Shown in pieces: positions 1,047 to 16,965 of a DNA stretch of 18,126 bases. Position 1 is the first letter of the stretch; the number at the start of each line of letters is the position of its first letter. The position numbers and the translations under genes were made by a program. Source of the stretch: Candidatus Eiseniibacteriota bacterium (GTDB lineage Bacteria > Eisenbacteria > RBG-16-71-46). Location: contig JANLWX010000014.1 in assembly GCA_031364845.1 (NCBI GenBank), forward strand, positions 1 to 18,126, in the 5' to 3' direction. The notes beneath the pieces were generated by a model. The model worked only from the letters and a program-made list of their open reading frames with translations, was not told the origin of the DNA and searched no databases.

Positions 1047-2219
1047 TCAAGCCCTCGCCAGATACCCGATCTCGACCGTCGTCTCCGAGTCCACGGTTTC
1101 GAGCAGATCCTCGAACACGGCCGTGAACGGCGACGTCCACAAAACGCGTCCGGTCTTCTTGCTGAGTTCGGTAAGCGCCTTCTCGCCTTCGGGCCCGATC
1201 AACCGCAGTCCCTGAGTGAGCAGCTTGAGACCGTGGGTGTAGACGGGCAGGCCGCGCTGAACCGCCTTCAGCAGATACTCCGTCGCGGCCGCGCCGTCTT
1301 TGCGTTCCTGAATCGATTGCATCGCCCACAGGATGCAACCGTCGGGGATCTCGGTGAACCCGTTCGCCAGATTTCTCGCCCAGTCGTGCATCAGGTCGAA
1401 GCGCCCGAGGCGGAACAGCAGATAGGCGCCGACGGTCGCGGCCCAGGGGTCGGCCATCTTCGCCATCAGCATCCGTTCGGCGCTCTCGGCCCATTCGGTC
1501 ATCGCTTCGGCCGAGTAGTAGTCGCCGCGCGACAGGTAGCCTCCCACGACGTCCGCGAGTTCCGACGACGTCGAGACACGCAAGCTGACGTGCTTTCCCG
1601 ACTTGAGCTGGTTCACGGTGAGCAATGCATCGTCGACATTCCCCGGGAGCCGGACGACGACGCTCGAACCCACAGTGGTGTGGAGGCGAAGTTCGGAAGG
1701 TCGATATGACGGAGTCGGTGAGAACGTCACCTGGCGCCCGAAGTCGGAAACTTCTCCGAGCGCGCCCTGCGACCATTCGATCTTCACGCCGCTCGGGAGC
1801 AACTGGCCCGTGTAGGCTTCGGATTGAGGGGGCCCGGCGGGCGCGGGCCCGCCACCCGTCAACGGAGGGCCGCCACTCTTCATGGACGCTCTGCCCACCG
1901 AGGAGCGGTACTGCGCTTCTCGAACCTGTCGAACGGTGCTCGACATCTCGGGCGGTCGAACGGTAGTGGGCCGGCTCCGCGCGCCTTCGATATCCTCGCG
2001 TGTCACGACGTAGTTGAGATCTCCCGAGTGGCGCAAGGTCACGTTGCGGCCGGACGGCAATCGCAGACGAATGAACGAGGCCTCCGAAGGCACCTCCACC
2101 TTGGCCACCGACGACGGGCCGAGCATGAGCTGCTTCACGGTCTCGTGATCGGGACTGAGCACTTCGACCACCATCGCGGGAAGGCCGTCGCTCAGGCGAA
2201 TGCTCATGGTGCCGGCCAT
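1047..2219 (-). CDS. hypothetical protein (390 aa), third gene of the caspase cassette; beta-rich N-terminus, G/P-rich linker, helical C-terminal domain
   Basis: ORF track 1047..2336. The start is reassigned to ATG at 2219 (MAGTMSIRLS), which overlaps the caspase stop (TGATG). The C-terminal half looks conserved and helical (DPWAATVGAYLLFR...DWARNLANGF..IPDG...RGLPVYTHGLKLL). No signal peptide. Confidence 0.85.
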   Translation of the reverse strand: MAGTMSIRLSDGLPAMVVEVLSPDHETVKQLMLGPSSVAKVEVPSEASFIRLRLPSGRNVTLRHSGDLNYVVTREDIEGARSRPTTVRPPEMSSTVRQVREAQYRSSVGRASMKSGGPPLTGGGPAPAGPPQSEAYTGQLLPSGVKIEWSQGALGEVSDFGRQVTFSPTPSYRPSELRLHTTVGSSVVVRLPGNVDDALLTVNQLKSGKHVSLRVSTSSELADVVGGYLSRGDYYSAEAMTEWAESAERMLMAKMADPWAATVGAYLLFRLGRFDLMHDWARNLANGFTEIPDGCILWAMQSIQERKDGAAATEYLLKAVQRGLPVYTHGLKLLTQGLRLIGPEGEKALTELSKKTGRVLWTSPFTAVFEDLLETVDSETTVEIGYLARA

Positions 2220-3340
2220 CAGGGGTATTCCACGGGATACGTTGGAGGCGTCAGCTCGTCCTGAATGCTCTTGGGCGGAAACGTTGAGAACGTGAGATCG
2301 ATCTGGGCCGGTCCTGGATCCACCGTGTCCATCCACGGCCGGCTTTCTCCGGCCACGGAGTTGCGGACCTTGGCACCCTGAGTGATCCGGATCGCGGACT
2401 CCGCGCTCGCCTGATCATCATCGCAGCTCACGCTGACCACGACCGCCCCTTTGGGCGGATAGTGGAACGTGACAGGTTTGAGCACCGGACACTCGCACGT
2501 CAGCGGAAGATTTGTTACCGAGGCCATTTCCTCGATCACGGAGCCGAGGGCATAGCTCAGGGCCGCCGTGTTGACGCGCCAGGGAAGCGGCTTGCGCGCA
2601 CCGGCACCGTTGAGACACGTGATGAGCGCCTTGCAGAAGTACGTCTCTTCCCCGTCTTTGCCGTGTGCCGCGCGGCCCTCGGAGGCGGCGTAGTAGGCGA
2701 TCGACAGATCCACCGTGTCGAGGAACGTCGAGCCGCCGGCGAGCGGCCGGCCATGGGGATTCTTCTTCGTCAATGCGGCGATTGGCGCGTCGCGGCAGGC
2801 ATCGATGAAGTAGAGCTGCGTGTCCGCCTTGCACTTGATCATCCCCGACTTCATGCCACTGAAGTCGATGCAGTTCTCCCACTCATCCGGCAGATCGGGG
2901 TTGCCGAAGTCCGAGAGCAACAGGAACTGGCTGATCGTGCTGATGCCGTGTCCCGCGAAATAGAAGAACGCGATGCTGCCTTCGTCCTGATTGCACCGCG
3001 CATACCAGTCGTCGAACGCCTGCTTCGTTTCCGCCATCGTCGCGGCACCCGAGTTTACGTTCGATCCATCGGCTCGCGTCATGGTTTCCTTCGGCGACAG
3101 CACGACTTCGATCGAGCCGAGCGGACACGCGGGATTCTGGTATTCACGCTCGAGCCATTGCACGATGCGCCGCGCCGCCGGCACCGTGGTGGTCAGCGGC
3201 TGCAGGCCGCTGAGGAAGTTGGACGGCTTCAGAACCCCGGGCCCCAGATGCTCGTACTCGCCGACGCCGATCACCAGGGCATGCAGCCGTGGCGCATTCA
3301 GAACGACGTTCGCTGCCGACGCCGGCCAGTAGAGGCTCAT
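2219..3340 (-). CDS. caspase-family (peptidase C14, metacaspase/orthocaspase-like) cysteine protease, 373 aa
   Basis: First strand LHALVIGVGEY, catalytic His in FFYFAGHG (H131), catalytic Cys in YFIDACR (C182), then YAASEG..AHG and YFCKALITCL. A short beta-rich C-terminal extension follows. The start overlaps the upstream stop (ATGA, 3337-3340). Confidence 0.92.
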   Translation of the reverse strand: MSLYWPASAANVVLNAPRLHALVIGVGEYEHLGPGVLKPSNFLSGLQPLTTTVPAARRIVQWLEREYQNPACPLGSIEVVLSPKETMTRADGSNVNSGAATMAETKQAFDDWYARCNQDEGSIAFFYFAGHGISTISQFLLLSDFGNPDLPDEWENCIDFSGMKSGMIKCKADTQLYFIDACRDAPIAALTKKNPHGRPLAGGSTFLDTVDLSIAYYAASEGRAAHGKDGEETYFCKALITCLNGAGARKPLPWRVNTAALSYALGSVIEEMASVTNLPLTCECPVLKPVTFHYPPKGAVVVSVSCDDDQASAESAIRITQGAKVRNSVAGESRPWMDTVDPGPAQIDLTFSTFPPKSIQDELTPPTYPVEYP

Positions 3341-4527
3341 AGCGCGTCGATCCTCGCCCTCAGGCGTTCGTAAAACCGCGTCTGTTCGAAGTACGCACCG
3401 TGCGCCTTGATCACGTAGGTTTTCGTGTCGTAGCGGGCGTCCACATCGACCCGATCGAAGACCGGCTTGGCGGCGTACGAGAAGATGTCCACCTCATCGT
3501 AGATGTTGATCCAGTGAAGGATGTTCTTCGGCGTCACCGCCTTTCCCGGCGGCTTCGCCTTGTCACTGTTCTTGAACAGCTTCATCTCTTCGAAGTGCGC
3601 GACCTGGGAGCCGACCGAAACGAACAGATCCACTTCGAGCGGACGGAAGTGGCTCAAGAGATCGAACGTGATCACACCACCGAGACTGTGTCCCACGATC
3701 ACGAGCGGCTCTCCGGGTGGGGCGGCTTGAACCGCTTTGTCGATGCCAGCCAGCACCCGCTGGCCAATTGGACCCGGCTGCGCCGCGTCGCCTCTCGAGT
3801 TGAAGTAGATGAACACGTCCCCGAAGAAACGCCCGAGCGTCGCGTTCAAGGCCTCGCGATTGGCGGCAAGAATCTTGGTGGAGGCGAAATCCCCCGCGCG
3901 ATCGAGGGTGGTGCCCATCAGGCCTGTGGCAGCGCTCTTGAGGCGGGTGGCAATCCCGCCCAGAGCGTCGATCACCTTGCCGAGTCCCAGCGTCTCGACC
4001 GGAGTCGGAGCCTTGATCGCCAGCCCGAGTTGTCCGATCAAGGCATCGTCGGTGGTGACGTTGGCGAGCCACGCCGGCCGCGGATTGGCCTTCGCATACG
4101 CCTGGGCCGACGCGGCGAATTCTGCGATCTCTTCGATCAGATCGTCCGTCGACTGATCGAGCGCCAGGCTCGCGATCAGCTCGACCGCATTCGAGAAGTC
4201 ACGCTTCGCGAGCGCCAGGATCGGCTCGCCGGTCACGCTTCCCGGAACGGCGTCGTGAATCATCGCCAGGTAGGGCAACATGGCCGGATCGGCGTTGCCC
4301 GAGAGTGCCTGCATCTCGCCGCGGGGCAGCGAGGCCATGTTCCACGCAAATGAAGCGGCGAGATCGCCCCAGTAGGGGAACCCGATCTCGCCGACATTTG
4401 CGAACGACTTGCCGTTGATGGTCGCCCCGGCGAAGCACGACTTGAGCGCGTCGGCCTTGAGCTTCACGCCCGCGTCGTAGCTCGGACCCAAGCGATTGTT
4501 CACGCCGTGCACGAAGACGATCGGCAT
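3337..4527 (-). CDS. cytoplasmic lipase-like alpha/beta hydrolase with a large helical insertion, 396 aa
   Basis: N-terminal IVFVHGV (oxyanion-hole strand), nucleophile elbow IVGHSLGG (S281), FVSVGSQ, acid candidate in WINIYDEVDIFS, His in AHGAYF. No signal peptide. Confidence 0.88.
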   Translation of the reverse strand: MPIVFVHGVNNRLGPSYDAGVKLKADALKSCFAGATINGKSFANVGEIGFPYWGDLAASFAWNMASLPRGEMQALSGNADPAMLPYLAMIHDAVPGSVTGEPILALAKRDFSNAVELIASLALDQSTDDLIEEIAEFAASAQAYAKANPRPAWLANVTTDDALIGQLGLAIKAPTPVETLGLGKVIDALGGIATRLKSAATGLMGTTLDRAGDFASTKILAANREALNATLGRFFGDVFIYFNSRGDAAQPGPIGQRVLAGIDKAVQAAPPGEPLVIVGHSLGGVITFDLLSHFRPLEVDLFVSVGSQVAHFEEMKLFKNSDKAKPPGKAVTPKNILHWINIYDEVDIFSYAAKPVFDRVDVDARYDTKTYVIKAHGAYFEQTRFYERLRARIDAL

Positions 4528-4650
4528 GCTGGGCTCTCGCGGCTAATTGTGGGGTTTGAGCCTGAACGACTTGCGAATCGAAGAGCAGCGCTCAGGGCGT
4601 TTGCGCCAAAACTTGGACGGTCATTCTCGCACGAGGGTTCGACATCGTCA

Positions 4651-4664
4651 TTCAGAAATCTGAA
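4651..4664. promoter_or_regulatory. palindrome TTCAGA-AA-TCTGAA, candidate operator
   Basis: Perfect 6-bp arms with a 2-nt spacer, AT-rich, in the intergenic region about 125 nt upstream of the hydrolase-caspase cassette. Confidence 0.3.
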
Positions 4665-4724
4665 AGCGCCCCGGTCAGGGTTCGCAGGTGATGCGATTCT
4701 CGTCTCTCCGCATCCTTCCGACCG

Positions 4725-7700
4725 TTACCGCAATCGCACGATCCGCTCTACCAGATCGCCGCCCGGAAAGCGGTAGGCGACGAAGTAGATCCCGGGCGCG
4801 GTCAATGGTCCCGGCCACTCCACGCTGTGGGCGCCGGCACTTCGTGTTCCGTTCACGAGCGAAGCAACGCGTCGGCCTTGGAGATCGACGACGTTCAACT
4901 CGACGACGGCCTCGTGTGCGAGGGTGAAACGGATCATCAATGGACCGAATCCGGGGTTTGGGGCCACGCGCGTCAACTCGAAGCGATAGGGCACGATTTT
5001 GAGGACATGCACGGACTCGCTTATCACAACGGCTTCGCCACCTTCACGCGAAGTCAGTCGGTACCAGTATTCCTGCTCGGCGCGCGCACTTCGATCGATC
5101 CCCGCGAGCGCATCGCCCTGGGTAACGGAGCTGATCACGACGATCGTCCACGGCCCTGTGGCCGCATCAGCTCGCTCGATCCGTACGTCGGCCATGAGTG
5201 AACCGGCGGCAAGACTCCACCTCACTCGCACGCCGTCCGCCTCCCGCTCGGCGGTGAACATCGTCAGCAGTGTCGGAGTCGACGCACAGCCCTGCCCCCG
5301 CGCCCCGATCAACCCGCAGCCAGGTGCGTCGAGCAGCGGAGAATCTTCCGCGAGGCTGACGCTGTCGGCGTCGACATCGCAGAACAGCGGGTCGAGCGCG
5401 AGGTCGCTGGCGCCCGATGGCATTCCGCGCGTCGCCCCGGTGCCGTTGCCGAACCAATTGTTGCACGTGGTGGGCACGTCCAACGTGTCCGCGGACAGGC
5501 CATAGCCCACGTTTTGGAAAGCGATGTTCTTCGTCACGACCTGCGGCCATGCCGTCGACACGAGATGAATGCCATGTCCCTGGTTGCGGAAGACGGTGTT
5601 CGCAACGATCGACGCATCGGCGTTGGAACCCGAGAAGTCCACGCGAATCCCGTCCTGCCCGCTGCGACCCACAACGTTGCGCTCGATCACCACATCGCGG
5701 GATGCCTGAACTCGAAGGCCGTTTGTGACGGACCCGACGATCAGATTGTCCGATACATTGCGAGCGACCCCCGAGATACCCGTGCCGCAGTCACGCACGA
5801 CATTGCTTTCGACGCTGCCCTCGTAGCAGTTGATTCCGATTCCGCAGCTGGCGACGACGTTGCTGCGAATGGACCCATGGCCCAAGACACCGATCGACGA
5901 ACAACCTGTAATACGATTCTCGACCGCGTCGAGGATGGTTCCGGCGTCCGCGAGGATGCCGTGTTCGTAGGAACCGATGATCTCGCTGGTCTGAACGTTC
6001 ATGGCACCGCCGTCATCCTGGGAGATGGCGGAATACCCGGTGCCTTCGAAGCGGCAATCCCTCACGCTCATCGTCGGATTGTCGCCCGCCACCCGAATGC
6101 CTCCGGTAAGGAACGTGTCCGAGTCGCAGACCACGAAGTTGGTGGCGATCGTTCTCACCCACCCGAGAATCCGCGAACGGTAGATGTCGACGTGGGCGTA
6201 GTCCCAGAACTCGAAGCGGTCCGTCTGCACCAGCCCCGAATCGAGCGTGCACGACTCGATCTCCACCAGCGCATTGCCGTATCCGGCCCGCCGGAGCTCG
6301 ACGGCCCCATCGAAGGCAAAGTCGCGGACGCGCAACTGTCCGAGATCATTCAGAGACGTCGTGACCAGACCGTTCGCTCGCGGTCTCTGACCGCTGCCGG
6401 GAAGGCCTCGCAGCACGAGCGACTGCCCCACCTCGAGGCGCTCGGGATACGTTCCCGTCCTCACGTCGACGGTATCCGCCCCCGAATCGATCGCAAGCTG
6501 GATGGTGGCGAAGTCGTCCGGCACGGTGACTCTCGAGGAGTTGATCGGGCCCGCGCCCAGTTCACCCTCGCGAGTGAAATGCATCGCGTACACATCCGAG
6601 CGGTTCGGGACGAAGTCGCGGTGGTCCTGCCACAACAGATATGCGCCGTCCACTCCGTCCGATACGAGTGACACCGGAAACTGATTGCCCGAGAGTGAGC
6701 AAAGCGACAGTCCGGTGTCGGGGAATGCGGCGGGGACTTGCGCCAAGGCGTTCACGCGGCTGCCGAAGAGATTCGGAGTGTTGCGGCGGAAGGCGAACAT
6801 CGCGCCGCCATCGCCGTCGGGCGCGATGAGCGGCCAGCCCGACAGAATGTCCCTCGATGTGGCAAACGTGCGGCCGCCGCTCTGCCATGCCGATGCGAAC
6901 GTGCCGTCGGCTTCGATGCGCCGGGCGACGTAGGCATCGAGCGCGCCGCCGGGCACGAGCCACGCGATCATCGCGGCGCCGTCGCCGGTGGCGACGATCA
7001 CCGGCAGATCGTCGTCACCGGGCGAAGCACCAATGGCGACACCGCCCACCGGCCATCCGGGCCGTGGCGCGGCGGTCGGACCCAGCCGAATTGCGTAGAT
7101 CGCATCCGATCCGCTTCCGCAATCGCGGCAGTCGCGCCACGCCAGAAAGATTCCGCCCGTTTCATCACTCGCACCGATGACACGGCTCGCAAACGATGGG
7201 CTGGCCCAACGACTCGTCTCGGTTCCGTCGGAACCATGATGCGTGGCGGCGATCAGGCTCGTGGCGTTCGAATTCTCCGACGCGAGCCAGAACCCTCCGC
7301 TCCCATCGGCGATCAAAGCGTGCGGATACTTGTAGCCGGGCCCGGTCGTCAGTCCGCGCCCTGCGACCGGCCAACTCGGGTCGAGTGATCCGTCGAACCG
7401 CACGTGGTGCGCGAAGACGTCGTAGACAAGCGTGCCCATGACGGGCGTATTGCGCGCATCGGTCCAGGCGACGAATGCTCCGCCCGCACCATCGCTGCAC
7501 ACGGCCGTCAGGTCGTTGAGCGGCCCGGTTCCCAGAGGGGTGCTCGTTGTGCAGATCGGCGTGCCTGAAGCCACCCAGCCCGAAGCAATGCTCGCTTCGG
7601 AATCGACGCGAATGGCGTAGATCCCGCGTGATACGCCCGACGCCCGGTAGTCGTACCAAGCGAGAATCGCACCGCCGGCCCCATCCAGAATCAGCTTCGG

Positions 7701-8024
7701 AGTCGAGATCGCCGCCGGCGCAGCGACCACCCCGCGCCCACCCACGGGCCAGCCCGGCACCAGCGTGCCTTGCCGCGTCAGGTGCTGCGAATAGAGCGCG
7801 TACGGCGACGGACCCGCATCGACCCAGAACGCATGGAGCTCCCCGTTGGGACCGGTGAGTCCGACCGGAGACAATTGCTGGGTCGGGCCCGTTGCCAGCC
7901 GAACTCCCGAAGCGGGCCAGTCGGCGCGCGCGAGCGGCACCGCGAATGCGATGCTCGAGGCGATGGTTACGACCAGCTTCCACGCGTTCGATCGGGTCAT
8001 TGGATTCGCTCTGGCGGGAGTCAT
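4725..8024 (-). CDS. secreted/surface protein, 1099 aa: signal peptide, repeat (beta-propeller-like) domain, right-handed parallel beta-helix, C-terminal FlgD-Ig/T9SS-like sorting domain
   Basis: AGGGGA RBS 9 nt before ATG 8024. Signal peptide ends PLARA-D. About 8 DGxGGA-hhhW-xD-xR repeats. VTVPDDFATIQLAID...VRTGTYPE is a beta-helix cap, followed by repeated 'IxxNxI/V' coils. The C-terminus reads PNPGFG..IRFTL...VELNVVDLQGRRVASL...AGAHSVEW...GIYFVAY. Confidence 0.9.
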   Translation of the reverse strand: MTPARANPMTRSNAWKLVVTIASSIAFAVPLARADWPASGVRLATGPTQQLSPVGLTGPNGELHAFWVDAGPSPYALYSQHLTRQGTLVPGWPVGGRGVVAAPAAISTPKLILDGAGGAILAWYDYRASGVSRGIYAIRVDSEASIASGWVASGTPICTTSTPLGTGPLNDLTAVCSDGAGGAFVAWTDARNTPVMGTLVYDVFAHHVRFDGSLDPSWPVAGRGLTTGPGYKYPHALIADGSGGFWLASENSNATSLIAATHHGSDGTETSRWASPSFASRVIGASDETGGIFLAWRDCRDCGSGSDAIYAIRLGPTAAPRPGWPVGGVAIGASPGDDDLPVIVATGDGAAMIAWLVPGGALDAYVARRIEADGTFASAWQSGGRTFATSRDILSGWPLIAPDGDGGAMFAFRRNTPNLFGSRVNALAQVPAAFPDTGLSLCSLSGNQFPVSLVSDGVDGAYLLWQDHRDFVPNRSDVYAMHFTREGELGAGPINSSRVTVPDDFATIQLAIDSGADTVDVRTGTYPERLEVGQSLVLRGLPGSGQRPRANGLVTTSLNDLGQLRVRDFAFDGAVELRRAGYGNALVEIESCTLDSGLVQTDRFEFWDYAHVDIYRSRILGWVRTIATNFVVCDSDTFLTGGIRVAGDNPTMSVRDCRFEGTGYSAISQDDGGAMNVQTSEIIGSYEHGILADAGTILDAVENRITGCSSIGVLGHGSIRSNVVASCGIGINCYEGSVESNVVRDCGTGISGVARNVSDNLIVGSVTNGLRVQASRDVVIERNVVGRSGQDGIRVDFSGSNADASIVANTVFRNQGHGIHLVSTAWPQVVTKNIAFQNVGYGLSADTLDVPTTCNNWFGNGTGATRGMPSGASDLALDPLFCDVDADSVSLAEDSPLLDAPGCGLIGARGQGCASTPTLLTMFTAEREADGVRVRWSLAAGSLMADVRIERADAATGPWTIVVISSVTQGDALAGIDRSARAEQEYWYRLTSREGGEAVVISESVHVLKIVPYRFELTRVAPNPGFGPLMIRFTLAHEAVVELNVVDLQGRRVASLVNGTRSAGAHSVEWPGPLTAPGIYFVAYRFPGGDLVERIVRLR
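6560..7925 (-). repeat. about 8 degenerate intragenic protein repeats (~55-65 aa), probable propeller blades
   Basis: GPNGELHAFWVD, DGAGGAILAWYDYR, DGAGGAFVAWTDAR, DGSGGFWLASE, DETGGIFLAWRDCR, TGDGAAMIAWL, DGDGGAMFAFRR and DGVDGAYLLWQDHR. Most are preceded by a WPxxG-like motif (WPASG, WPVGG, WVASG, WPVAG, WPVGG, WQSGG, FPDTG). Confidence 0.8.
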
Positions 8025-8196: not shown

Positions 8197-9480
8197 TCAG
8201 GCTGCGTGCCGGTGCCGCCTGCCCGCCCGCGACACCAACTCGCGGAACTCGTTCATCAACTCCCCGGCGCTGAACGTGCAGTGTCCGTAGCGCTCGACTC
8301 GGTGCTGGACGAGCATCGGCCCTGCCGCGACCTGAGCCAGCAGATCCTCGTGGAACGCCGGCACCACCGGATCCCGTGACGTGTGGAGCGAGGTCACAGG
8401 AATGCGGAACCGGCCGCGCGGTTCGCCGAACCGCGCGAGGAAGGTTGCGGCTTCCGGCGAGACCGCATAACGCGCCACGCGTGCGTTCACATCGGCCACC
8501 AATGCGGGCGGCAGAGCCGCCGACGTGTATTGCCAGCCGGTGTTGTCGAAATACGACTGTCCCTGCGTGCGCTCGAACAAGTCAGCGCCACCCTGCATCG
8601 AGAATCCGAGCACGGTGATCAGCGAGTTGACGACTTCCTGCGTGCTGGCTCCGGGCAGCGATCGGCGCGCGAGGGCTTGTATGACTCCGACACCCTGAGG
8701 ATTCTGCTGGATCGCCGCCAGCACCGGCTGGACCACCTGAAGGTTGATGTTCGTGATGACGGGCGGATGTTCGAGGCCGCCCTGCAGCACGTTGGGATAG
8801 ACCGTGTCGAACAGGACCCGGATGTCTCCGATGTACTGAACTTCATCGTCACTGCCGCCGACGATGCCACACACGAGCAAGCTGCCGTCGTAGTCCTCCG
8901 GATGACGCTGGGACAGGATCATGCCGATGAGACCGCCCAGCGACTGGCCGAAGAGATAGGTGTGCCGGGGCCGGCCGCACCGGGACGCGAAGTTCTCGTC
9001 CAGTCTGCGCGAGTCCTGCACACCTTCACGAACGGCGTAGCCGTTGCTCGAATAACTCGATGCCGTGACCGCGAAGCCCAACGCCAGCAGCGAATCCCGA
9101 ATCGCCGCGTTGTTCGGCAGCGCAACGGGGTCCTGCGGATTCGTATAGCCATGCAGGTAGACGACCAGATCGCCATTCCAGCGCGCCGGGGTGTCGATCA
9201 CCCACAAGGCACCCGAGCTGGACACGCCTTCGATGTGGCGCGGACCCCGAATCCGCCTGCCGTCCGTCGAGGGCACCCCCTCGCGCGGATCCAGCAACGC
9301 AGGATTGGTGAGGGACGCCGTGGCGGGATTCGTGGCGAACGCATCGGGACCCGTGATGTTCTTGCCGCAGCCCGACGCAACGAACTGCACCAGGAGGATT
9401 GATACGGATGCCACGCCTCGCAGTCGTGAGCAGGCATGCAACCACGACGCGTACGGAACGCTTGAGAGCTTCGGGCACAT
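8197..9480 (-). CDS. exported alpha/beta-fold serine hydrolase (esterase/peptidase S9-like), probable lipoprotein, 427 aa
   Basis: Strong RBS GAGGAGG before ATG 9480. A hydrophobic stretch ends in lipobox-like VASG-C. Motifs: LVVYLHGY, YLFGQSLGG (Ser), RDPVVP (Asp), YGHC (His). Confidence 0.87.
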   Translation of the reverse strand: MCPKLSSVPYASWLHACSRLRGVASVSILLVQFVASGCGKNITGPDAFATNPATASLTNPALLDPREGVPSTDGRRIRGPRHIEGVSSSGALWVIDTPARWNGDLVVYLHGYTNPQDPVALPNNAAIRDSLLALGFAVTASSYSSNGYAVREGVQDSRRLDENFASRCGRPRHTYLFGQSLGGLIGMILSQRHPEDYDGSLLVCGIVGGSDDEVQYIGDIRVLFDTVYPNVLQGGLEHPPVITNINLQVVQPVLAAIQQNPQGVGVIQALARRSLPGASTQEVVNSLITVLGFSMQGGADLFERTQGQSYFDNTGWQYTSAALPPALVADVNARVARYAVSPEAATFLARFGEPRGRFRIPVTSLHTSRDPVVPAFHEDLLAQVAAGPMLVQHRVERYGHCTFSAGELMNEFRELVSRAGRRHRHAA

Positions 9481-9881: not shown

Positions 9882-11660
9882 CTAGTTCAAGCGCACCACT
9901 CGCTGGACGTCACGGCCACCCGGGTAGCGATACTCCACGAAGAACACACCCGACGCATCCGACGGCGCAGCCCACTCGACCGTGTGCGTTCCGGCTGCGG
10001 CCGTACCCCGAACAACCGTCGCGACCTGGCGGCCCTGAAGATCCAGCACGTCGACTTCGACAGCCGCCTCGCGCGGCAGCATGAAGCGGATGATCATCGG
10101 ACCGAAGCCGGGATTCGGAGTCACGCGAGCCAGTTCGAACCGGCCCGAATTCGCCGCCGGAACCGCGATGGGTGCGCCGATCACCACGGATCTTCCCCCC
10201 TCGCGCGCGACGAGCCGGTACCAGAGTTCGCGACCACGTAAGGCACTGCGATCGAGTCCGTCGTGTCCGCCCCCGTCGCTGATGCCGTCGACGGCAATCC
10301 GGGCCCACGGACCCGAGATCGACTCCGAGCGTTCGACCCACACGTCCGCGAAGCGCGCAGGTTCCGCGAGTTGCCATCGCAACCGCACTCCGTCTGGTTC
10401 GCGATCCGCGCTGAACAATGACACCAAGGTCGGAGTGGACGCGCAGCCCATGCCTCGTGCCCCGATCAACCCGCAGCCCGGCGCGAAGAGCAGCGGTGAG
10501 TCCTCGGCAAGGCTGACCGAGTCCTGATCGACATCGCAGAACAGAGGATCGACCGCGAGATCGGTGGGCGACGGAGGCCTGCCGGACACCGCACCCAATT
10601 GATTTTCGAACCAGTCGTTGCAGGCCAGCATCGTATCGGCGAGTCCGATTTCGAGCAGGCCGTAACCCTGGTTGCGGTAGGCGATGTTGTTCCGGACCGC
10701 GGTCGTCGATCCTGAAGCAACGCGGACGATGGCAAAGCCGGCGGAGACATTGTCATAGCTCGTGTTGTTGTGGATCGAGTGATTTCCTGAAAGCAACTGC
10801 ACATACAATCCGTAGCGACCGGACCTCGCGATGACGTTGCACTCGATGCGCGTGTCGGCGCCTTCATCCTCGAATATGCGAATGCCGTCGCCGCCACAAT
10901 CCATGATGCGATTGTCGACGACTTGCACAATCCCGCTGGCGTTGATGCCGGCGGCGCACCGTTCGACGACGTTGCCTTCGATATGGACGGGACGATCCTG
11001 AGTACCCACGGTGATCGCCGATCCGTAGTCGCGAATGGTGTTCCGATTGACCTCGACCGCCACATCGCCGCTTGCGGTGACGGCGGCAAGAGCAGGGGAA
11101 CCTGAAAAGGTGCTGTTGTAGACGTGCATCACGCCATCCTGTTCGAGCGCAATGCTGCCTTGATCGAACCAGCATGAGTCCGCATAGATCCCGACGTCGC
11201 TGTTCGCCAGCACGCGGCCCGTGATGCGGCAGCCCACGAGCCTGACCGATCGGGGGTCTCCGTCGATGATCGTCGTGAGGCCCGCCTCGAGACGGCAATC
11301 CCGAAACACAAGATTCGCCTTCGCCACCGTGCGGATCAGCCCCGTGAAACGCAGGTTGGCGAAGGTGGCGACTCCTCCGGAACTCGTATTCGCCAGCAGT
11401 CGCCGGATCGAGGGGCGCGAAAGCGAATCACCCAGTCCGATCACCATCAGTCCATCGCCGAGGTTATAAGCCACCAACGAGTCCGTGACGACACCCGGCC
11501 GCACGAAGATCGTGTCCACCGTGCCGAACGGCGGATCGTCGATCGCGGCCTGGATGGTCGCGAAGTCGTCGGGAACCGTGACGGTCATCGCACGGGCACG
11601 CGGCGCGAGGCCGGGCAGGGCGACCGCAATCATCAAGAGGAGCCAGCGGGAACGGGGCAT
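9882..11660 (-). CDS. secreted right-handed parallel beta-helix protein with C-terminal FlgD-Ig/T9SS-like domain, 592 aa; paralogue of the C-terminal half of 4725..8024
   Basis: GGAGG RBS, signal peptide ending PRARA-M, VTVPDDFATIQAAID cap, beta-helix coils, DPLFCDVDQDSVSLAEDSPLL..GCGLIGARG.GC, and a C-terminal PNPGFG...DLQGRQVA...GVFFVEY domain. Confidence 0.9.
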   Translation of the reverse strand: MPRSRWLLLMIAVALPGLAPRARAMTVTVPDDFATIQAAIDDPPFGTVDTIFVRPGVVTDSLVAYNLGDGLMVIGLGDSLSRPSIRRLLANTSSGGVATFANLRFTGLIRTVAKANLVFRDCRLEAGLTTIIDGDPRSVRLVGCRITGRVLANSDVGIYADSCWFDQGSIALEQDGVMHVYNSTFSGSPALAAVTASGDVAVEVNRNTIRDYGSAITVGTQDRPVHIEGNVVERCAAGINASGIVQVVDNRIMDCGGDGIRIFEDEGADTRIECNVIARSGRYGLYVQLLSGNHSIHNNTSYDNVSAGFAIVRVASGSTTAVRNNIAYRNQGYGLLEIGLADTMLACNDWFENQLGAVSGRPPSPTDLAVDPLFCDVDQDSVSLAEDSPLLFAPGCGLIGARGMGCASTPTLVSLFSADREPDGVRLRWQLAEPARFADVWVERSESISGPWARIAVDGISDGGGHDGLDRSALRGRELWYRLVAREGGRSVVIGAPIAVPAANSGRFELARVTPNPGFGPMIIRFMLPREAAVEVDVLDLQGRQVATVVRGTAAAGTHTVEWAAPSDASGVFFVEYRYPGGRDVQRVVRLN

Positions 11661-11771: not shown

Positions 11772-14105
11772 CTATGCGCCGCGCAGCACCGATCGGATCT
11801 CGTCGTAGGCGGGCGGGAACAACGACGCCTGATCGGGATCCGCGAACAGCGCGGCGAAGTCTTCGGGCGTGAACGCGCGGGCGAGCCTCTGGGCGTAGTT
11901 GGCTCGGAGCACGCGAACGTAGTGCTCGACCTCGTAGTTGCGCAGGTCGGGCCTGCCATCGGTGGTTCGTTCGCTCGCGAGGCCGGCGGATCCCTCGCGG
12001 GTCCGAAACACTCGTACCCGGTCTCCGCGCCGCCACTCGTTTCGCCCCGCCGCGAGCATCGCTTCGTACGAGTGTTCTCGCCGGGACTCGCGCGAAGCCA
12101 GATACTGCGCCCGCGACTTGGTCAATCGCACGCGCGACGACACGTCAAACGTCGAATACTCCCGCCGCCGAAGTGCCGCGACCGTGTCGACGTACGCCTG
12201 CCGCACACCGGCGATGTCTCCCGCCAGCAGTCGTCCAACCGCGCGGCGAAGGAATGCTTCACCGAACGGCTCCGCCCGGCTCGATCGAAACGCCACTCCG
12301 CGCAGCGTGAGCGTGCCGTCGTAACCGAGCAGCGCGTAGTTCTTGGGCTCGTGCGACAGCATCGCGGCGTAGCGGCCTTCGAACTCCAATTGCACGAGCG
12401 GCGGAAGCAACGTTCCGACTTCCGCGACGACGCGCCGTTCGTCGGCCTCGGTCCAACCCGGCGGGGCGGCGAAGTAGATGCCGTCAGTGTCGGCTTCCAG
12501 GCGAATCACGCCACGCGCCTGCAACTCGCGGCACATCAGGTCGAGTGTCTCGCGCCCGCGCCGTGTGACTTCGTTCGCCGCATGGACGTCGGCGAATCGC
12601 GTGAGTCCGCCGGCGGCGAGATAGCCGTAGGCAGTGTTCACGACCAGCTTCATTGCGGCGGACATCGCCTCGTGCGTGTGCCGTTCGGCCGAGCCCGCGG
12701 GTGCCGCTCGCGCCGCGGCTTTAGCCGCGAGGCGCCGCTCGACCAGGCCGTCGACCAGCGCGAGCAACACGCCGAGCCGGTCGCGACTCGGCCCGATGCG
12801 ATGCGTGCGCATCAACGACGGATAGAGGCTCGCGACGTCGGCCTTCACCACGCGTCGCGCAACGCCGGTCGCAAACAGGTGCAGCGCCGCACCGCTGTGG
12901 GTCGTGCCATCGCCGCTCTCGTGCGCGGGCAGCGCGTGGCCCGCGCGCAGATAGGTTCGCACCAGGAGCGGATCGATCACGCCGGTCGCAGCGCCCGCGT
13001 CGGCCAGACGCTCGTAGCGTCGCGGCGCCAGTTGCGCGAGAGCGTAAGCCGCACCACCGAGCAGGCGCGCGAGTGCGGCGACTTCGATCACATCGGCGGT
13101 GGCGTAGCGCCGGACGCGTTCGGGGTCGGTGCGGTAGGTCGCGTGGACGAGATCGCCGCGAATCATCTCCCGATCCGGCGGTGCGATGCCGAAGTGCCGC
13201 GCGACCGCCTTCAATCCGTGCCCCGGCAATTCACGGATCGCGAAGTCGTAGCGCCGGACCGCATCGAGCGTGTCGATGCACTCCCGCCCCGGCAACACGT
13301 AGCGCGTCTGATCACGGCGCGATGCCCGCGCGCGCATGCCCAGCGATGGAATCCGCCCGAGACCGAGCCGAACGCCGAGCATGCGCGCGCGGCGTTCGAG
13401 AAACGGCAGATCGAAACCGTGCAGGTTGTGGTTTTCGATCACGTCGGGATCGGACGCGGTCACCGTCGCCACCAGCCTTCGTATGAGGTCGGCCTCCCCC
13501 GCGTTGTCCTCGCTCGCCGACTCGAGCACTTCCTCAGCACCCGAAGGGTGCCGCACTACAATCATGAAGATTCGGTTCGTTTCGGGCTCCAAACCGGTCG
13601 TCTCGAGGTCGAACTGCATGCGATGGAGTTGATCGAAGGCGAGGTCGCGAAAGTACGTGCGACCGGTCGTGACCAGGTACTGCTCCTCGGGCGGCAGCGA
13701 CAGCACCAATGACTTGCCGAGGTCGCGCACGTGGCCCAGCGTGCGTCCGAGCCGGCGCGAAGCGCCCTTCAAGACGGCCTGCGCCAGCGTCCGCGGGTCC
13801 GCGGAGCTCACGAGGAATCGGAGCTGGCCCGGGCCTTCGAGTTCCCGGTACGTGACGATCGCGTTGGAATGGTCGGTCTCGGGCGCCAACTCGCTCCCGA
13901 GATGCGAGAGGTCGTCGAGCCGATCGAGCAACAGCCACGGACGAAACCGAGCCTCTTCGCGGACGAGGTCACCCGACTCCGGAAGGCGACGCCAGATGAT
14001 CGCCTGCCCCGACGGCTGCGCCCACACCGAGACGATGCCGGGCGTGGGATCCCAGCCCCATAGCCATTCGAGCGGGATCGGAGCGGGTTCGGGGGTGGTG
14101 TGCAT
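11772..14105 (-). CDS. polB: family B DNA polymerase with 3'-5' exonuclease domain (Pol II-like); start at 14105 or 14135
   Basis: ExoI FDLETTG, ExoII HNLHGFDLPFL, ExoIII YATADV. Polymerase motif A ADVASLYPS, motif B KLVVNTAYG, motif C EADTDG, then KNYA. C-terminal QASLF clamp-binding motif. Confidence 0.93.
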   Translation of the reverse strand: MHTTPEPAPIPLEWLWGWDPTPGIVSVWAQPSGQAIIWRRLPESGDLVREEARFRPWLLLDRLDDLSHLGSELAPETDHSNAIVTYRELEGPGQLRFLVSSADPRTLAQAVLKGASRRLGRTLGHVRDLGKSLVLSLPPEEQYLVTTGRTYFRDLAFDQLHRMQFDLETTGLEPETNRIFMIVVRHPSGAEEVLESASEDNAGEADLIRRLVATVTASDPDVIENHNLHGFDLPFLERRARMLGVRLGLGRIPSLGMRARASRRDQTRYVLPGRECIDTLDAVRRYDFAIRELPGHGLKAVARHFGIAPPDREMIRGDLVHATYRTDPERVRRYATADVIEVAALARLLGGAAYALAQLAPRRYERLADAGAATGVIDPLLVRTYLRAGHALPAHESGDGTTHSGAALHLFATGVARRVVKADVASLYPSLMRTHRIGPSRDRLGVLLALVDGLVERRLAAKAAARAAPAGSAERHTHEAMSAAMKLVVNTAYGYLAAGGLTRFADVHAANEVTRRGRETLDLMCRELQARGVIRLEADTDGIYFAAPPGWTEADERRVVAEVGTLLPPLVQLEFEGRYAAMLSHEPKNYALLGYDGTLTLRGVAFRSSRAEPFGEAFLRRAVGRLLAGDIAGVRQAYVDTVAALRRREYSTFDVSSRVRLTKSRAQYLASRESRREHSYEAMLAAGRNEWRRGDRVRVFRTREGSAGLASERTTDGRPDLRNYEVEHYVRVLRANYAQRLARAFTPEDFAALFADPDQASLFPPAYDEIRSVLRGA

Positions 14106-14133
14106 GAGGGTGAATCTAGCGGTACGCCGGCAC

Positions 14134-14151
14134 ATGGACCACCGTGTCCAT
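14134..14151. promoter_or_regulatory. palindrome ATGGAC-N6-GTCCAT upstream of polB, candidate operator
   Basis: Perfect 6-bp arms at 14134-14139 and 14146-14151, over the expected -35 zone of a TAGATT -10-like hexamer (14118-14113). Confidence 0.3.
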
Positions 14152-14170: not shown

Positions 14171-16381
14171 CTACGGACCCTCGTCCCGCTTCACCGGCTT
14201 CGATCGCCGATCCACATCCCTCGCCTTCTCCACGAGAGACACGAATTCCGCCACCGTCGCGTCGGCGGGCAGATCACGGGCGGCACTCCGTGCCACCGAC
14301 AGCACGTCGGTCAGGCTGCTGCCCCTCGCCCAGTAACTACCTCTCATCATCTCCGCGAACTCGGCAACCGCAGCGTCCAATCGGAAACGCGGTGCAGTGC
14401 GCTCGAACCTTCGCTGGATCGCTGCGGCATCGAAGCGGCGTTCGATCTCATGCACTCGAGGAGCTCCGGCCACGTCGTGTTCCTGCTCGGCGTATCGAAG
14501 CCGCACGGTGGCGAGTGTGCCGTCTTCGAAATCGCGCGCCAGTTTCACTTCGTACAGCGCCGTGACCTCATGGCCTGCTCCGATCTCGCCCGCATCGACC
14601 TTGTCGTTTCGGAAGTCGCGGTCGGCGACATCGCGATTTTCGAAGCCCAGGAGCCGGTAGCGGAGCACGCGCGTGGAATCGAATTCGACTTGCACTTTCG
14701 CGTCCTTAGCGATGGTCTGAAGCGTGCCGGTCAGATTCTCAACGAAGACCCGGCGCGCCTCGTCGAGATTGTCGACGTAATAGTGGTTGCCATCGCCTCG
14801 ATCGGCGAGTTGCTCCATAAGCACGTCGTTGTAGTTCCCCATGCCGAAGCCGATCGTCGACAGGTGGATGCCGCGGTCTGCCGCGGTGCGGACGCGCTCG
14901 AGAATCGACTCGGGTCCGGTGCGGCCTACGTTCGCAACGCCGTCGGAGCACAACACGACGCGATTGATCGCCCCCCAGCGGTATGCGCGCCACGCCATTT
15001 CGTATCCCAGACGCAGGCCGTGCTCGGCGTTGGTGCTGCCCTCAGGGTGCAGGTTTTCGATGGCATCCAGAATCCGCTTCCGGCCGGCACCCGCCGGCGC
15101 GTCGGAATCGCCTTCTGAATTCCAAGAGCGATCGCTCAGCGGGGCAGGCTCGAGCAGCACACGCCCCTCGTTTCCGAACACCACGATGCCGACCTGATCG
15201 CCACCTCGAAGACGTGCAACGAGGAGCCTGAGGGACCGCTTCACCAGTTCGAGCCGATCTTCTCGCGCCATCGAACCGGACACATCGATCACGAACGTCA
15301 ACTGAGCCGGCATGCGATCGTGCTCGGCAATTTCGCGACCCTTGAGGCCCACACGCATCAGGTGGTAGCCGCGCCCGAACGGCGAAGGCGCTGCGTCGAT
15401 CATGATTCGGAAATCCCCGTTCTCAAACTTCGGATAGTCCTGAGGGAAGAAGTTGACGAACTCCTCCACACGGACCGCGCCGACGGGCGGAAGATGGCCG
15501 AGCTCGAGATAGCGACGCGTGACCGTGTACGACGCGGCATCGACATCCACCGCGAACGTCGAGAGCGCGTCCTCTTCGGTGGCGATGAACGGATTGACGC
15601 CGTAGTTCTTGAAGAACATCGAGTCGAACGCTTCATCATTCGGAAGCCGGGTGCCCCCGGTGATCGGAATCACTGGGGGAGCAACGGGGCCGCTGGTTCC
15701 GTCGATCTGGAACTTCACCTCGCCGCTGCGTCCGCCGCGGAAGTGCAGGTCACCGCCGCGCGCGACGACGCCGGCCTTGGTGCCGATTGCCTGGCTGAGG
15801 TTGTCGACCGGCAGTTCCTTGAGCTTCTCGCCCGAAAGGTTCTGCTTTGCCGTCGACGACTTCGTGTCGATGCGGCGCTCGGCCTTGACCTCGATCGCGT
15901 CGTTCGTTCGCACGAACTGCGTCGAGCTTTCAACGCCATCCGATCCGGAAGACATTGCGGCGAGTTCGCGGAGTGGGAGCGCCGGGACTTCGGTGGCTCG
16001 AGGCGACACCGGCGGAACAGAAGCCTCGAGCATCGGCCTCGCAACCTGCGAGACCGGCGGCTTCAGCGTAGCCCCAGCGTCGTCGACGACCGTGGGTGCT
16101 GCGGTTTCGCTCCCGGCACGCCCGCGTTCCGAGTCCCGAACGCCGCGCCGCGAGTCGAGCGTGGCACGCGCTCCGTCACCCGGCGCCTGACGAAGGATCG
16201 GTATCGGTCGCGAGGAAAACATCGTGATCGCCGTCACGAATGCCGCGAACGCCGTCGCGAGCCACACCGGACGCCGATCCGGACGCCGGGACATCGATGG
16301 ATATGCCGACAGCGCTTCCCACAGTTCAATGCGTTCGTCGGGCGCGAGGCGCTCCGCGTAGCGGTCGAAGAGGTCTTTCAT
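14171..16381 (-). CDS. YfbK-like vWA domain protein (vWF_A + VWA + DUF3520) with N-terminal TM anchor and TonB-plug-like segment; probable anti-sigma/sensor, 736 aa
   Basis: Start reassigned to MKDLFDRY (16381), which overlaps the sigma stop (ATGA). TM segment VWLATAFAAFVTAITMF. NPFIATEEDALSTFAVDVDAASY...VRVEEFVNFF, MIDAS motif DVSGS, GSTN, SDGVAN, then TIAKDAKVQVEF...YRLLGFENR...NDKVDAGEIGAGHEVTALYE. Confidence 0.92.
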   Translation of the reverse strand: MKDLFDRYAERLAPDERIELWEALSAYPSMSRRPDRRPVWLATAFAAFVTAITMFSSRPIPILRQAPGDGARATLDSRRGVRDSERGRAGSETAAPTVVDDAGATLKPPVSQVARPMLEASVPPVSPRATEVPALPLRELAAMSSGSDGVESSTQFVRTNDAIEVKAERRIDTKSSTAKQNLSGEKLKELPVDNLSQAIGTKAGVVARGGDLHFRGGRSGEVKFQIDGTSGPVAPPVIPITGGTRLPNDEAFDSMFFKNYGVNPFIATEEDALSTFAVDVDAASYTVTRRYLELGHLPPVGAVRVEEFVNFFPQDYPKFENGDFRIMIDAAPSPFGRGYHLMRVGLKGREIAEHDRMPAQLTFVIDVSGSMAREDRLELVKRSLRLLVARLRGGDQVGIVVFGNEGRVLLEPAPLSDRSWNSEGDSDAPAGAGRKRILDAIENLHPEGSTNAEHGLRLGYEMAWRAYRWGAINRVVLCSDGVANVGRTGPESILERVRTAADRGIHLSTIGFGMGNYNDVLMEQLADRGDGNHYYVDNLDEARRVFVENLTGTLQTIAKDAKVQVEFDSTRVLRYRLLGFENRDVADRDFRNDKVDAGEIGAGHEVTALYEVKLARDFEDGTLATVRLRYAEQEHDVAGAPRVHEIERRFDAAAIQRRFERTAPRFRLDAAVAEFAEMMRGSYWARGSSLTDVLSVARSAARDLPADATVAEFVSLVEKARDVDRRSKPVKRDEGP

Positions 16382-16965
16382 GACTTCATCCCTTCCCATT
16401 CGCAATCGGCGAGAGGTGGCGTCGTGGCGCGCAAATCGGCGCGCATGTGTTGGCGGGCTCGGGCATGGTGGACGCGCGCGGTGCTCTCGGCGCAGCCCAG
16501 GAGATCCGCGATCTCGCGGAAGCTGCGCCCCTCCCACTCACGCAGCAGGAGTGCGGCGCGCTGATGACGCGACAACCGCGACAGCGCGAGATGTAGGGCG
16601 CTGTCCTCGGACTCGAAGCGCACGCTCTCGACATCCGGTTCGATGCGGACGTGCGCTTCGTCGAGCCGGGCCGTTCGCTTGAGCCGGCGCAGGATGACGC
16701 GCTTCCAGTCAATCGAGCGGCCGAGCGCAATGGAGCGCAGCCAGACCTCGAGCGGCGCCTCCCCGCGATACTGGCCGAGTTTTCGGAACGCCTGGAGGTA
16801 CGTCTCCTGCAGGATGTCCCGGGCCTCTTCACGATCCCCCATCTGATAGCAGAGGAATGCGAACAGGCGATCGCACGTCGATTCGTAGATGGTTCGCCAG
16901 GCGGAAGAGTCACCTTGCCTGGCCCGCTCCGTCAGAATCCGATCCGGCTGGACATCACTTGGCAT
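16378..16965 (-). CDS. ECF-type RNA polymerase sigma-70 factor, 195 aa
   Basis: Region 2: GDREEARDILQETYLQAFRKLGQYRGEA..EVWLRSIA. Region 4: LSRLSRHQRAALLLREWEGRSFREIADLLGCAESTARVHHARARQHMR. AAGGGG RBS. Confidence 0.95.
   Translation of the reverse strand: MPSDVQPDRILTERARQGDSSAWRTIYESTCDRLFAFLCYQMGDREEARDILQETYLQAFRKLGQYRGEAPLEVWLRSIALGRSIDWKRVILRRLKRTARLDEAHVRIEPDVESVRFESEDSALHLALSRLSRHQRAALLLREWEGRSFREIADLLGCAESTARVHHARARQHMRADLRATTPPLADCEWEGMKS

Follow-up and report, generated by a model that had tools for sequence, protein, structure and literature searches.

The window analysed here is an 18,126-nt stretch of DNA from a Candidatus Eiseniibacteriota bacterium (contig JANLWX010000014.1 of assembly GCA_031364845.1), which makes up the entire contig C112 of a 4.6-Mb genome, and it carries on its minus strand a cassette of three intact genes for a hydrolase, a caspase and a Y4kD_C-family protein that likely form an anti-phage suicide module of the Canu type. 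The first gene (4527-3337, minus strand) encodes a 396-aa predicted zymogen effector with a candidate catalytic triad of S281, D344 or D347, and H376; the second (3340-2219, minus strand) encodes a 373-aa C14 caspase/paracaspase-like protease with H131 and C182, here called CanA-like; and the third (2219-1047, minus strand) encodes a 390-aa protein of Pfam family PF27295 (Y4kD_C), here called CanB-like. As read in the sequence, stop and start codons overlap both between hydrolase and caspase (ATGA, 3337-3340, minus strand) and between caspase and third gene (TGATG, 2217-2221, minus strand), and the cassette is set off by intergenic gaps of 197 nt (4528-4724) and 171 nt (876-1046). Gene order was identical, with a caspase/third-gene overlap of 4 nt, in 25 of 25 related loci checked, and the arrangement thus reflects more than chance. 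An initial annotation of this DNA had reported the three genes, their overlaps and the catalytic residues, all of which were borne out by the sequence and by homologue alignments; its statement that the three proteins lack signal peptides agrees with a crude hydropathy scan, in which no stretch was hydrophobic enough to suggest a signal peptide or a membrane-spanning helix (19-residue hydropathy at most 1.46, 1.31 and 0.99). At 0.63-0.645, GC content in the cassette is a little lower than the genome value of 0.663, no second copy of the cassette was found in the same genome, and a search for promoters and terminators gave nothing above chance.

The caspase matches Pfam Peptidase_C14 (PF00656) above the cut-off (E 4.3e-11), all 36 aligned homologues keep H131 and C182, and its best solved-structure matches are to MALT1 (E about 1e-6). 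Its C-terminal domain (about residues 297-373) is beta-rich and a candidate Ig-like fold; alignment with the N-terminal beta domains of the partner protein as a possible homotypic likeness gave 16% over a short stretch of 18 columns. PADLOC 2.0 and NCBIfam scans of the cassette returned generic caspase matches only, and the lack of a PADLOC match for the first and third genes is no sign of novelty because the library dates from 2023. Assignment to the EACC1-type caspases was rejected (NF047832, 30.1 bits against a cut-off of 140). In the hydrolase, the GHSLGG motif with S281, together with D344/D347 and H376, is invariant in 30 of 30 aligned homologues. Its Pfam alpha/beta-hydrolase matches fall below their cut-offs, and the structural model, with a mean predicted local distance difference test (pLDDT) of 86.7, has as its best alpha/beta-hydrolase match the lipase Lip_vut1 (Z 13.7, root-mean-square deviation 2.8, 164 aligned residues), with the Nir2 DDHD domain (Z 12.6) and lysosomal phospholipase A2 (Z 11.9) also among the matches.

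PF27295, which is named Y4kD_C in the Atlas, was present in all 27 matches of the first search with the third protein. A single-protein scan of genome contigs with this gene gave nothing, an alignment-based search found relatives, and a profile search returned 2406 representatives at E 0.001 or better. In the model of the third protein (pLDDT 81.2), a pair of beta-rich domains and a disordered linker accompany a helical bundle that resembles tetratricopeptide repeats (TPR). Compared with TPR proteins, the bundle scores Z 9-11 (best rows 10-11), as helical bundles commonly do, and this comparison bears little on the beta domains. With Foldseek, neither the hydrolase nor the third protein had a match at E 0.001 or better, and a search for third-gene relatives among viral contigs gave 78 pattern matches, none of which was confirmed. 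Longer members of the family carry KTSC, histone-like, RAMA, CHAT, methyltransferase or pYEATS additions, and the copy in the window is the bare core without a C-terminal add-on. Proteins with C-terminal KTSC, histone-like, RAMA, LCM methyltransferase or CHAT domains are exemplified by P0063, P0072, P0137, L059, P0151 and P0043.

Homologous loci were gathered via the third gene only, and the 84 matches were reduced to 65 clusters at 90% identity, 49 of which had at least 1200 nt and 40 at least 2500 nt of upstream sequence. The results showed that the caspase lies directly upstream of, or is fused to, the third gene in 46 of the 49 clusters; the remaining three (L034, L072, L080) are fragments, one of them cut by a Tn3 transposase. 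Fusions of caspase and Y4kD_C occur in L016, L159, L161 and L172. The effector beside this pair is a hydrolase upstream in 29 of the 40 clusters, a metallo-beta-lactamase (MBL) protein downstream in 5 and a gasdermin upstream in 1, a ratio that is biased by the query used, and phospholipase D (PLD)-type partners were seen in L068 and L077. Since the effector varies around a constant pair, caspase and Y4kD_C constitute the constant core. In the gasdermin locus, L017, the order is gasdermin, caspase, Y4kD_C (PADLOC bGSDM, E 6.6e-66); this operon (L017:5102-8525) comes from an uncultured alphaproteobacterium, and the tail of its gasdermin, which has an N-terminal Cys, holds candidate sites of M|G or Q|G type. 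L077 (NZ_CP096257.1, 66000-100000) is a protease-rich Bradyrhizobium plasmid island with two cores, one with a 1788-aa fusion of Y4kD_C, trypsin and PLD and the other with a hydrolase. Broken copies were also observed, with an IS200 gene replacing the hydrolase (L044), a Tn3 insertion (L080), short remnants (L069-L072) or a split hydrolase (L158).

Structure prediction suggests that the caspase and the Y4kD_C protein bind each other as one protease complex. The pair scored 0.90 and the best of three controls 0.01, a mark of 0.90 being reached by 116 of 157 solved complexes and by 2 of 215 mismatched pairs; the runs shared at least 87% of contacts, with a partner pLDDT of at least 79. On the caspase side, the predicted interface comprises residues 259-289 and the active-site-flanking loops 133-137, 183-194 and 217-225. 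Judged from topology, residues 259-289 would make up the dimer face of the caspase as its helix and final strand, and caspase dimerisation is described as running along beta-6 (PMC4357240). This list of interface residues does not separate an activator from an inhibitor role of the third protein.

The hydrolase contains two candidate cut sites for such a protease. Site 1 (4300..4314, minus strand) spans residues 72-76 (M-Q-A-L|S) with L75 as the P1 residue, in a low-confidence loop of the model, and site 2 (3985..3999, minus strand) spans residues 177-181 (V-E-T-L|G) with L180 as P1, pLDDT being below 50 at residues 173-178. Between them lies a helical acidic insert of 105 aa (residues 76-180; 3988..4302, minus strand) that is predicted to be excised, with a net charge of -9 against a family median of -7. 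The motif [QE]-[AST]-[LF]|G occurs twice across the hydrolase family, in low-confidence loops on either side of the helical insert. Scoring was carried out on 55 hydrolases less 14 that were Lc-type, split or poorly aligned, leaving 41, which clustering at 90% identity reduced to 31. With training on site 2 alone, the matrix ranked site 1 first of about 390 5-mers in 23 of the 31 hydrolases and among the top three in 28, and the reverse test with a site-1-trained matrix placed site 2 first in 23, with two poor ranks (48 and 60); these are ranks rather than probabilities, because the 31 hydrolases are related. In the window hydrolase the L75 and L180 sites are the two top-scoring 5-mers (13.1 and 12.6), and no strong motif was found in the caspase or the third protein, whose best scores were 4.2 and 3.3. 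The P1 type shifts jointly at both sites, being F/F in L018, L019, L152 and L156, R/R in L153, K/K in L142 and L/L here. By eye, the caspase position equivalent to E500 of MALT1, described as an Arg-specificity residue (PMC4357240), is Gly in the window and Glu in L153 and L142, the loci with R and K sites. A like motif is present at two aligned places in the MBL partners, where the KaeCanC nuclease described below has its tested glycines G104 and G189. The pair R69-G70 of the window hydrolase, considered as an Arg-Gly site, was rejected since it is not conserved.

Cleavage of this kind has been described for the same hydrolase family in Lysobacter capsici AZ78, where LcCaspase cuts LcHydrolase at two Arg-Gly bonds and its N-terminal and C-terminal pieces together kill E. 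coli (Evans et al., bioRxiv 10.1101/2025.11.14.688446). Six Xanthomonadaceae hydrolases recognised as Lc-like by eye against the Evans supplement match the window hydrolase family (profile 99.6%, E 1.2e-23). Both systems pair this hydrolase with a C14 caspase and have two cut sites around a removable middle piece, which in the window are sequence-level candidates, and site 1 lies 20 residues beyond the aspartate of YWGD in 25 of 31 hydrolases, the same offset as R73 of LcHydrolase (the latter counted by eye). They differ in P1, which is Arg in LcHydrolase and predicted to be Leu in the window, with scissile bonds L|S and L|G; in the middle piece, of 44 aa there and 105 aa here; and in gene number, two there and three here, the Lc-type caspase carrying a fused C-terminal domain whereas the window partner is a separate gene. 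That tail may be a remote Y4kD_C/CanB relative: its predicted structure and that of a caspase-Y4kD_C fusion cluster share a template-modelling score of 0.66 over 237 residues, and its profile comparison with Y4kD_C gave a probability of 10-15% (E 0.002-0.003; controls 0.15-0.42), with an unsuccessful global alignment. The Lc-type caspases (L153:5424-7247, L142, L147, L149, L150) end in an unnamed 270-aa domain, and P1 in the hydrolases of such loci varies (R, K, M, L/Q) along with the E500-equivalent residue of the caspase.

By eye, the caspase and third gene resemble the Canu system KaeCanABC of Klebsiella aerogenes, which comprises the caspase CanA with an Ig-like tail, CanB and the pro-nuclease CanC, and which blocks phage T4 in a manner that depends on the two active sites and on the glycine at each cut site (Tuck et al., Science 2025, PMC12799240). 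CanB co-purifies with CanA, CanA was not obtained without CanB, the CanAB complex activates CanC in vitro, T4 escapers map to the dda helicase, and the role of CanB is left open (PMC12799240). Like Canu, the cassette has three genes, a MALT1-like caspase, an adjacent partner and an effector with two Gly-containing cut sites, these being candidates here; the complex of caspase and partner is known for KaeCanAB and predicted for the window pair. Compared by eye, KaeCanA follows the consensus of caspase alignment A3 motif by motif, and KaeCanB and Y4kD_C share G-x4-A, K-x2-D-P-x2-A and N-L-x8-D in the same spacing. The KaeCanC sites read E-G-L|G and E-S-M|G and those of the window hydrolase L|S and L|G. 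The Canu effector is an MBL nuclease encoded downstream, whereas that of the window is an alpha/beta-hydrolase encoded upstream; no MBL gene was found in or beside the window cassette, which is followed by tgt, and caspase-partner-MBL loci among the relatives match the Canu arrangement. The initial annotation had not recognised the cassette as a named system; the view that it is unlike any of them is not supported, as caspase and third gene look by eye like CanA/CanB and the caspase-hydrolase pair is characterised in Evans et al.

Three further systems bear comparison. The y4kD locus of Sinorhizobium fredii pNGR234a has hydrolase, caspase and Y4kD in the order of the window, its Y4kD being 549 aa with a C-terminal extension and the window protein 390 aa; a literature search found no functional paper on Y4kD. 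Bacterial gasdermin systems likewise combine a caspase-fold protease with a death effector, and the related L017 joins the Y4kD_C core to a gasdermin. The Runella gasdermin protease cleaves a Leu-Gly bond to free its death effector (Johnson et al., bioRxiv 10.1101/2021.06.07.447441); that enzyme is a CHAT protease whereas the window has a C14 caspase, and none of the three window proteins has a PADLOC bGSDM match. Kaur et al. (2020, PMC7159879) predicted obligate pairing of caspase and hydrolase genes in systems with MoxR, vWA and VMAP components, none of which is in the window cassette; Kaur et al. (2021) offered nothing further that is specific.

The distribution of the cassette is patchy, as the initial annotation had anticipated for a defence module: searches of 60 relatives brought up no third gene and no hydrolase in any of them, and in 400-genome surveys with four candidates scored per genome, the third gene occurred, besides the centre genomes, in one genome among 400 Acidobacteriota and in two among 400 Alphaproteobacteria. 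The relative G027 has a tgt gene that is 88% identical in DNA and a patatin gene upstream, and the cassette is absent. The third gene is also present on 31 plasmid records, 26 of them typed conjugative. A PADLOC scan of 66 proteins, mostly hand-picked neighbours, found defence-model matches beside homologous loci, namely IetA/IetS (L073/L074, L157), SspA/DndA (L079), HNH with Vsr (L081), PDC-S02 (L156) and Upx (L019). IetAS (AAA ATPase and S8 protease) directly adjoins both MBL-type and hydrolase-type cassettes (L073/L074, L157, L158).

Together, these data make it likely that the cassette is a Canu-type anti-phage suicide module in which a protease core activates a latent hydrolase, complex formation and phage defence being argued by analogy with KaeCanABC, and double cleavage and toxicity by analogy with LcHydrolase. 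The caspase and the Y4kD_C protein would assemble as a CanA/CanB-like protease complex, and infection would lead this complex to cleave the hydrolase behind L75 and L180; release of the acidic 105-residue insert would switch the hydrolase on, and the activated enzyme likely kills or arrests the cell. We would guess that its substrate is a lipid or ester and that the Y4kD_C subunit carries the sensing step, the C-terminal add-ons of that family being variable. Synteny, the patchy spread, the matching cut motifs and the published relatives lend good support to the protease-activated, defence-type effector module proposed by the initial annotation. Where that annotation took the third gene for a sensor or adaptor, the prediction made here is of a subunit bound to the protease. 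As to defence-island proximity, which it had proposed to examine, defence genes lie beside several homologous loci and ordinary neighbours around the window cassette and most of its close relatives. Several observations weigh against this reading. The correspondence of the two core proteins with CanA/CanB appears from comparison by eye only, and KaeCanB lacks four conserved Y4kD_C positions (Y266, W280, P325, G330). A protein search for a close Klebsiella-type canu locus returned only close relatives, and six gammaproteobacterial loci selected by their MBL gene had a caspase or Y4kD_C match in none, so that this MBL family is not tied to the core. A trigger corresponding to the T4 dda helicase of KaeCanABC is not evident for the window cassette, and the portion of the Evans preprint (10.1101/2025.11.14.688446) drawn on here gives neither phage protection nor a substrate for the LcHydrolase pair. 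The window has no defence-island neighbours by Pfam, ordinary metabolic genes surround most close relatives of the cassette, and the motif ranks come from related hydrolases.

These neighbours would suit a non-defence proteolysis switch in which an esterase or lipase inside the cell is brought to maturity by the caspase complex so that lipids can be remodelled under stress or in development, as would the fold matches to lipases, the Nir2 DDHD domain and lysosomal phospholipase A2, and Evans et al. (10.1101/2025.11.14.688446) raise stress roles for some modules; yet this core also goes with a gasdermin and with an MBL of DNase type, and the third gene is rare and patchy in the surveys above, so that we consider such a switch a shade more unlikely than an addiction or toxin-antitoxin function, itself unlikely. 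In the latter, Y4kD_C would be a labile inhibitor of the caspase whose loss, by plasmid loss or translation shut-off, would free the protease to activate the hydrolase, any effect on phage being secondary. The plasmid records, the tight translational coupling of the cassette genes and a predicted interface that includes caspase loops beside the catalytic His, the catalytic Cys and the substrate loop could all be accommodated in this way, but in Canu it is the CanAB complex that activates CanC in vitro, the reported work did not yield CanA in the absence of CanB, and the four caspase-Y4kD_C fusions do not fit a labile antitoxin.

A defence module whose hydrolase is left uncut at the Leu-Gly motifs, with these serving for docking or with other targets for the caspase, appears very improbable. 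It gains something from the fact that cleavage is here inferred, that the characterised hydrolase is cut after Arg and that site 1 reads L|S rather than L|G, but it leaves aside the shared offset of site 1 and LcHydrolase R73, the joint change of P1 at both sites and the known Leu-Gly cleavage by the Runella gasdermin protease.

The cassette connects two separately published findings of 2025, Canu (caspase, CanB and nuclease) and the hydrolase zymogen. If it is the protease-activated suicide module preferred here, it would give a function to the Y4kD locus and PF27295, with exact cut sites and Leu specificity predicted. It would also provide a small system of three genes in which to study the signal sensed by CanB and the target of the killing hydrolase, and effector swaps among hydrolase, nuclease and gasdermin loci would be a direct test of modularity. 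A wider proposal, which we put forward tentatively and rate at somewhat below even, is that PF27295 Y4kD_C is the CanB family, a widespread partner subunit, and docks on the caspase dimer face in place of a second caspase, as a sensor platform; the caspase-CanB core would then be a universal Leu/Phe-Gly protease switch for lipase-fold zymogens, DNases, gasdermins and PLD enzymes, with the hydrolase form as its commonest wiring and the Lc-type caspases as a fused version. Both mechanisms are published, but no report appears to exist of the two combined, of the family to which the third gene is assigned here or of the exchange of effectors; a literature search turned up no account of a hydrolase effector beside a CanAB core, although Fig. 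4A and the supplementary PDF of Evans et al., Fig. 4B and fig. S2 of Tuck et al., and Burroughs and Aravind (2020) may show one.

The other genes noted in the window lie on the minus strand. The flanking gene (3-875) belongs to the tgt family, as the initial annotation had it, but is an accessory second paralogue and not the housekeeping copy, the canonical gene being on C33 and 49% identical. The 93% identical copy of G027 (L105:1291-3303) is a 671-aa fusion of TGT and Methyltransf_30, and contig G000:C127, which overlaps the left end of the window by 141 nt, appears to hold the rest of the same fusion. On the other side of the cassette are two related secreted-type proteins (4725-8024 and 9882-11660) that contain right-handed beta-helix regions and match FlgD-Ig weakly at the C-terminus, and between them an unrelated second alpha/beta-hydrolase (8197-9480) with weak tannase/DUF6351 matches and an apparent signal peptide. 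These are followed by a 787-aa family B DNA polymerase-like gene (11772-14135), which has an exonuclease domain and matches the Pfam polymerase domain over only a short stretch, and by genes for an ECF sigma factor and then a vWA/YfbK-type protein (14171-16965).

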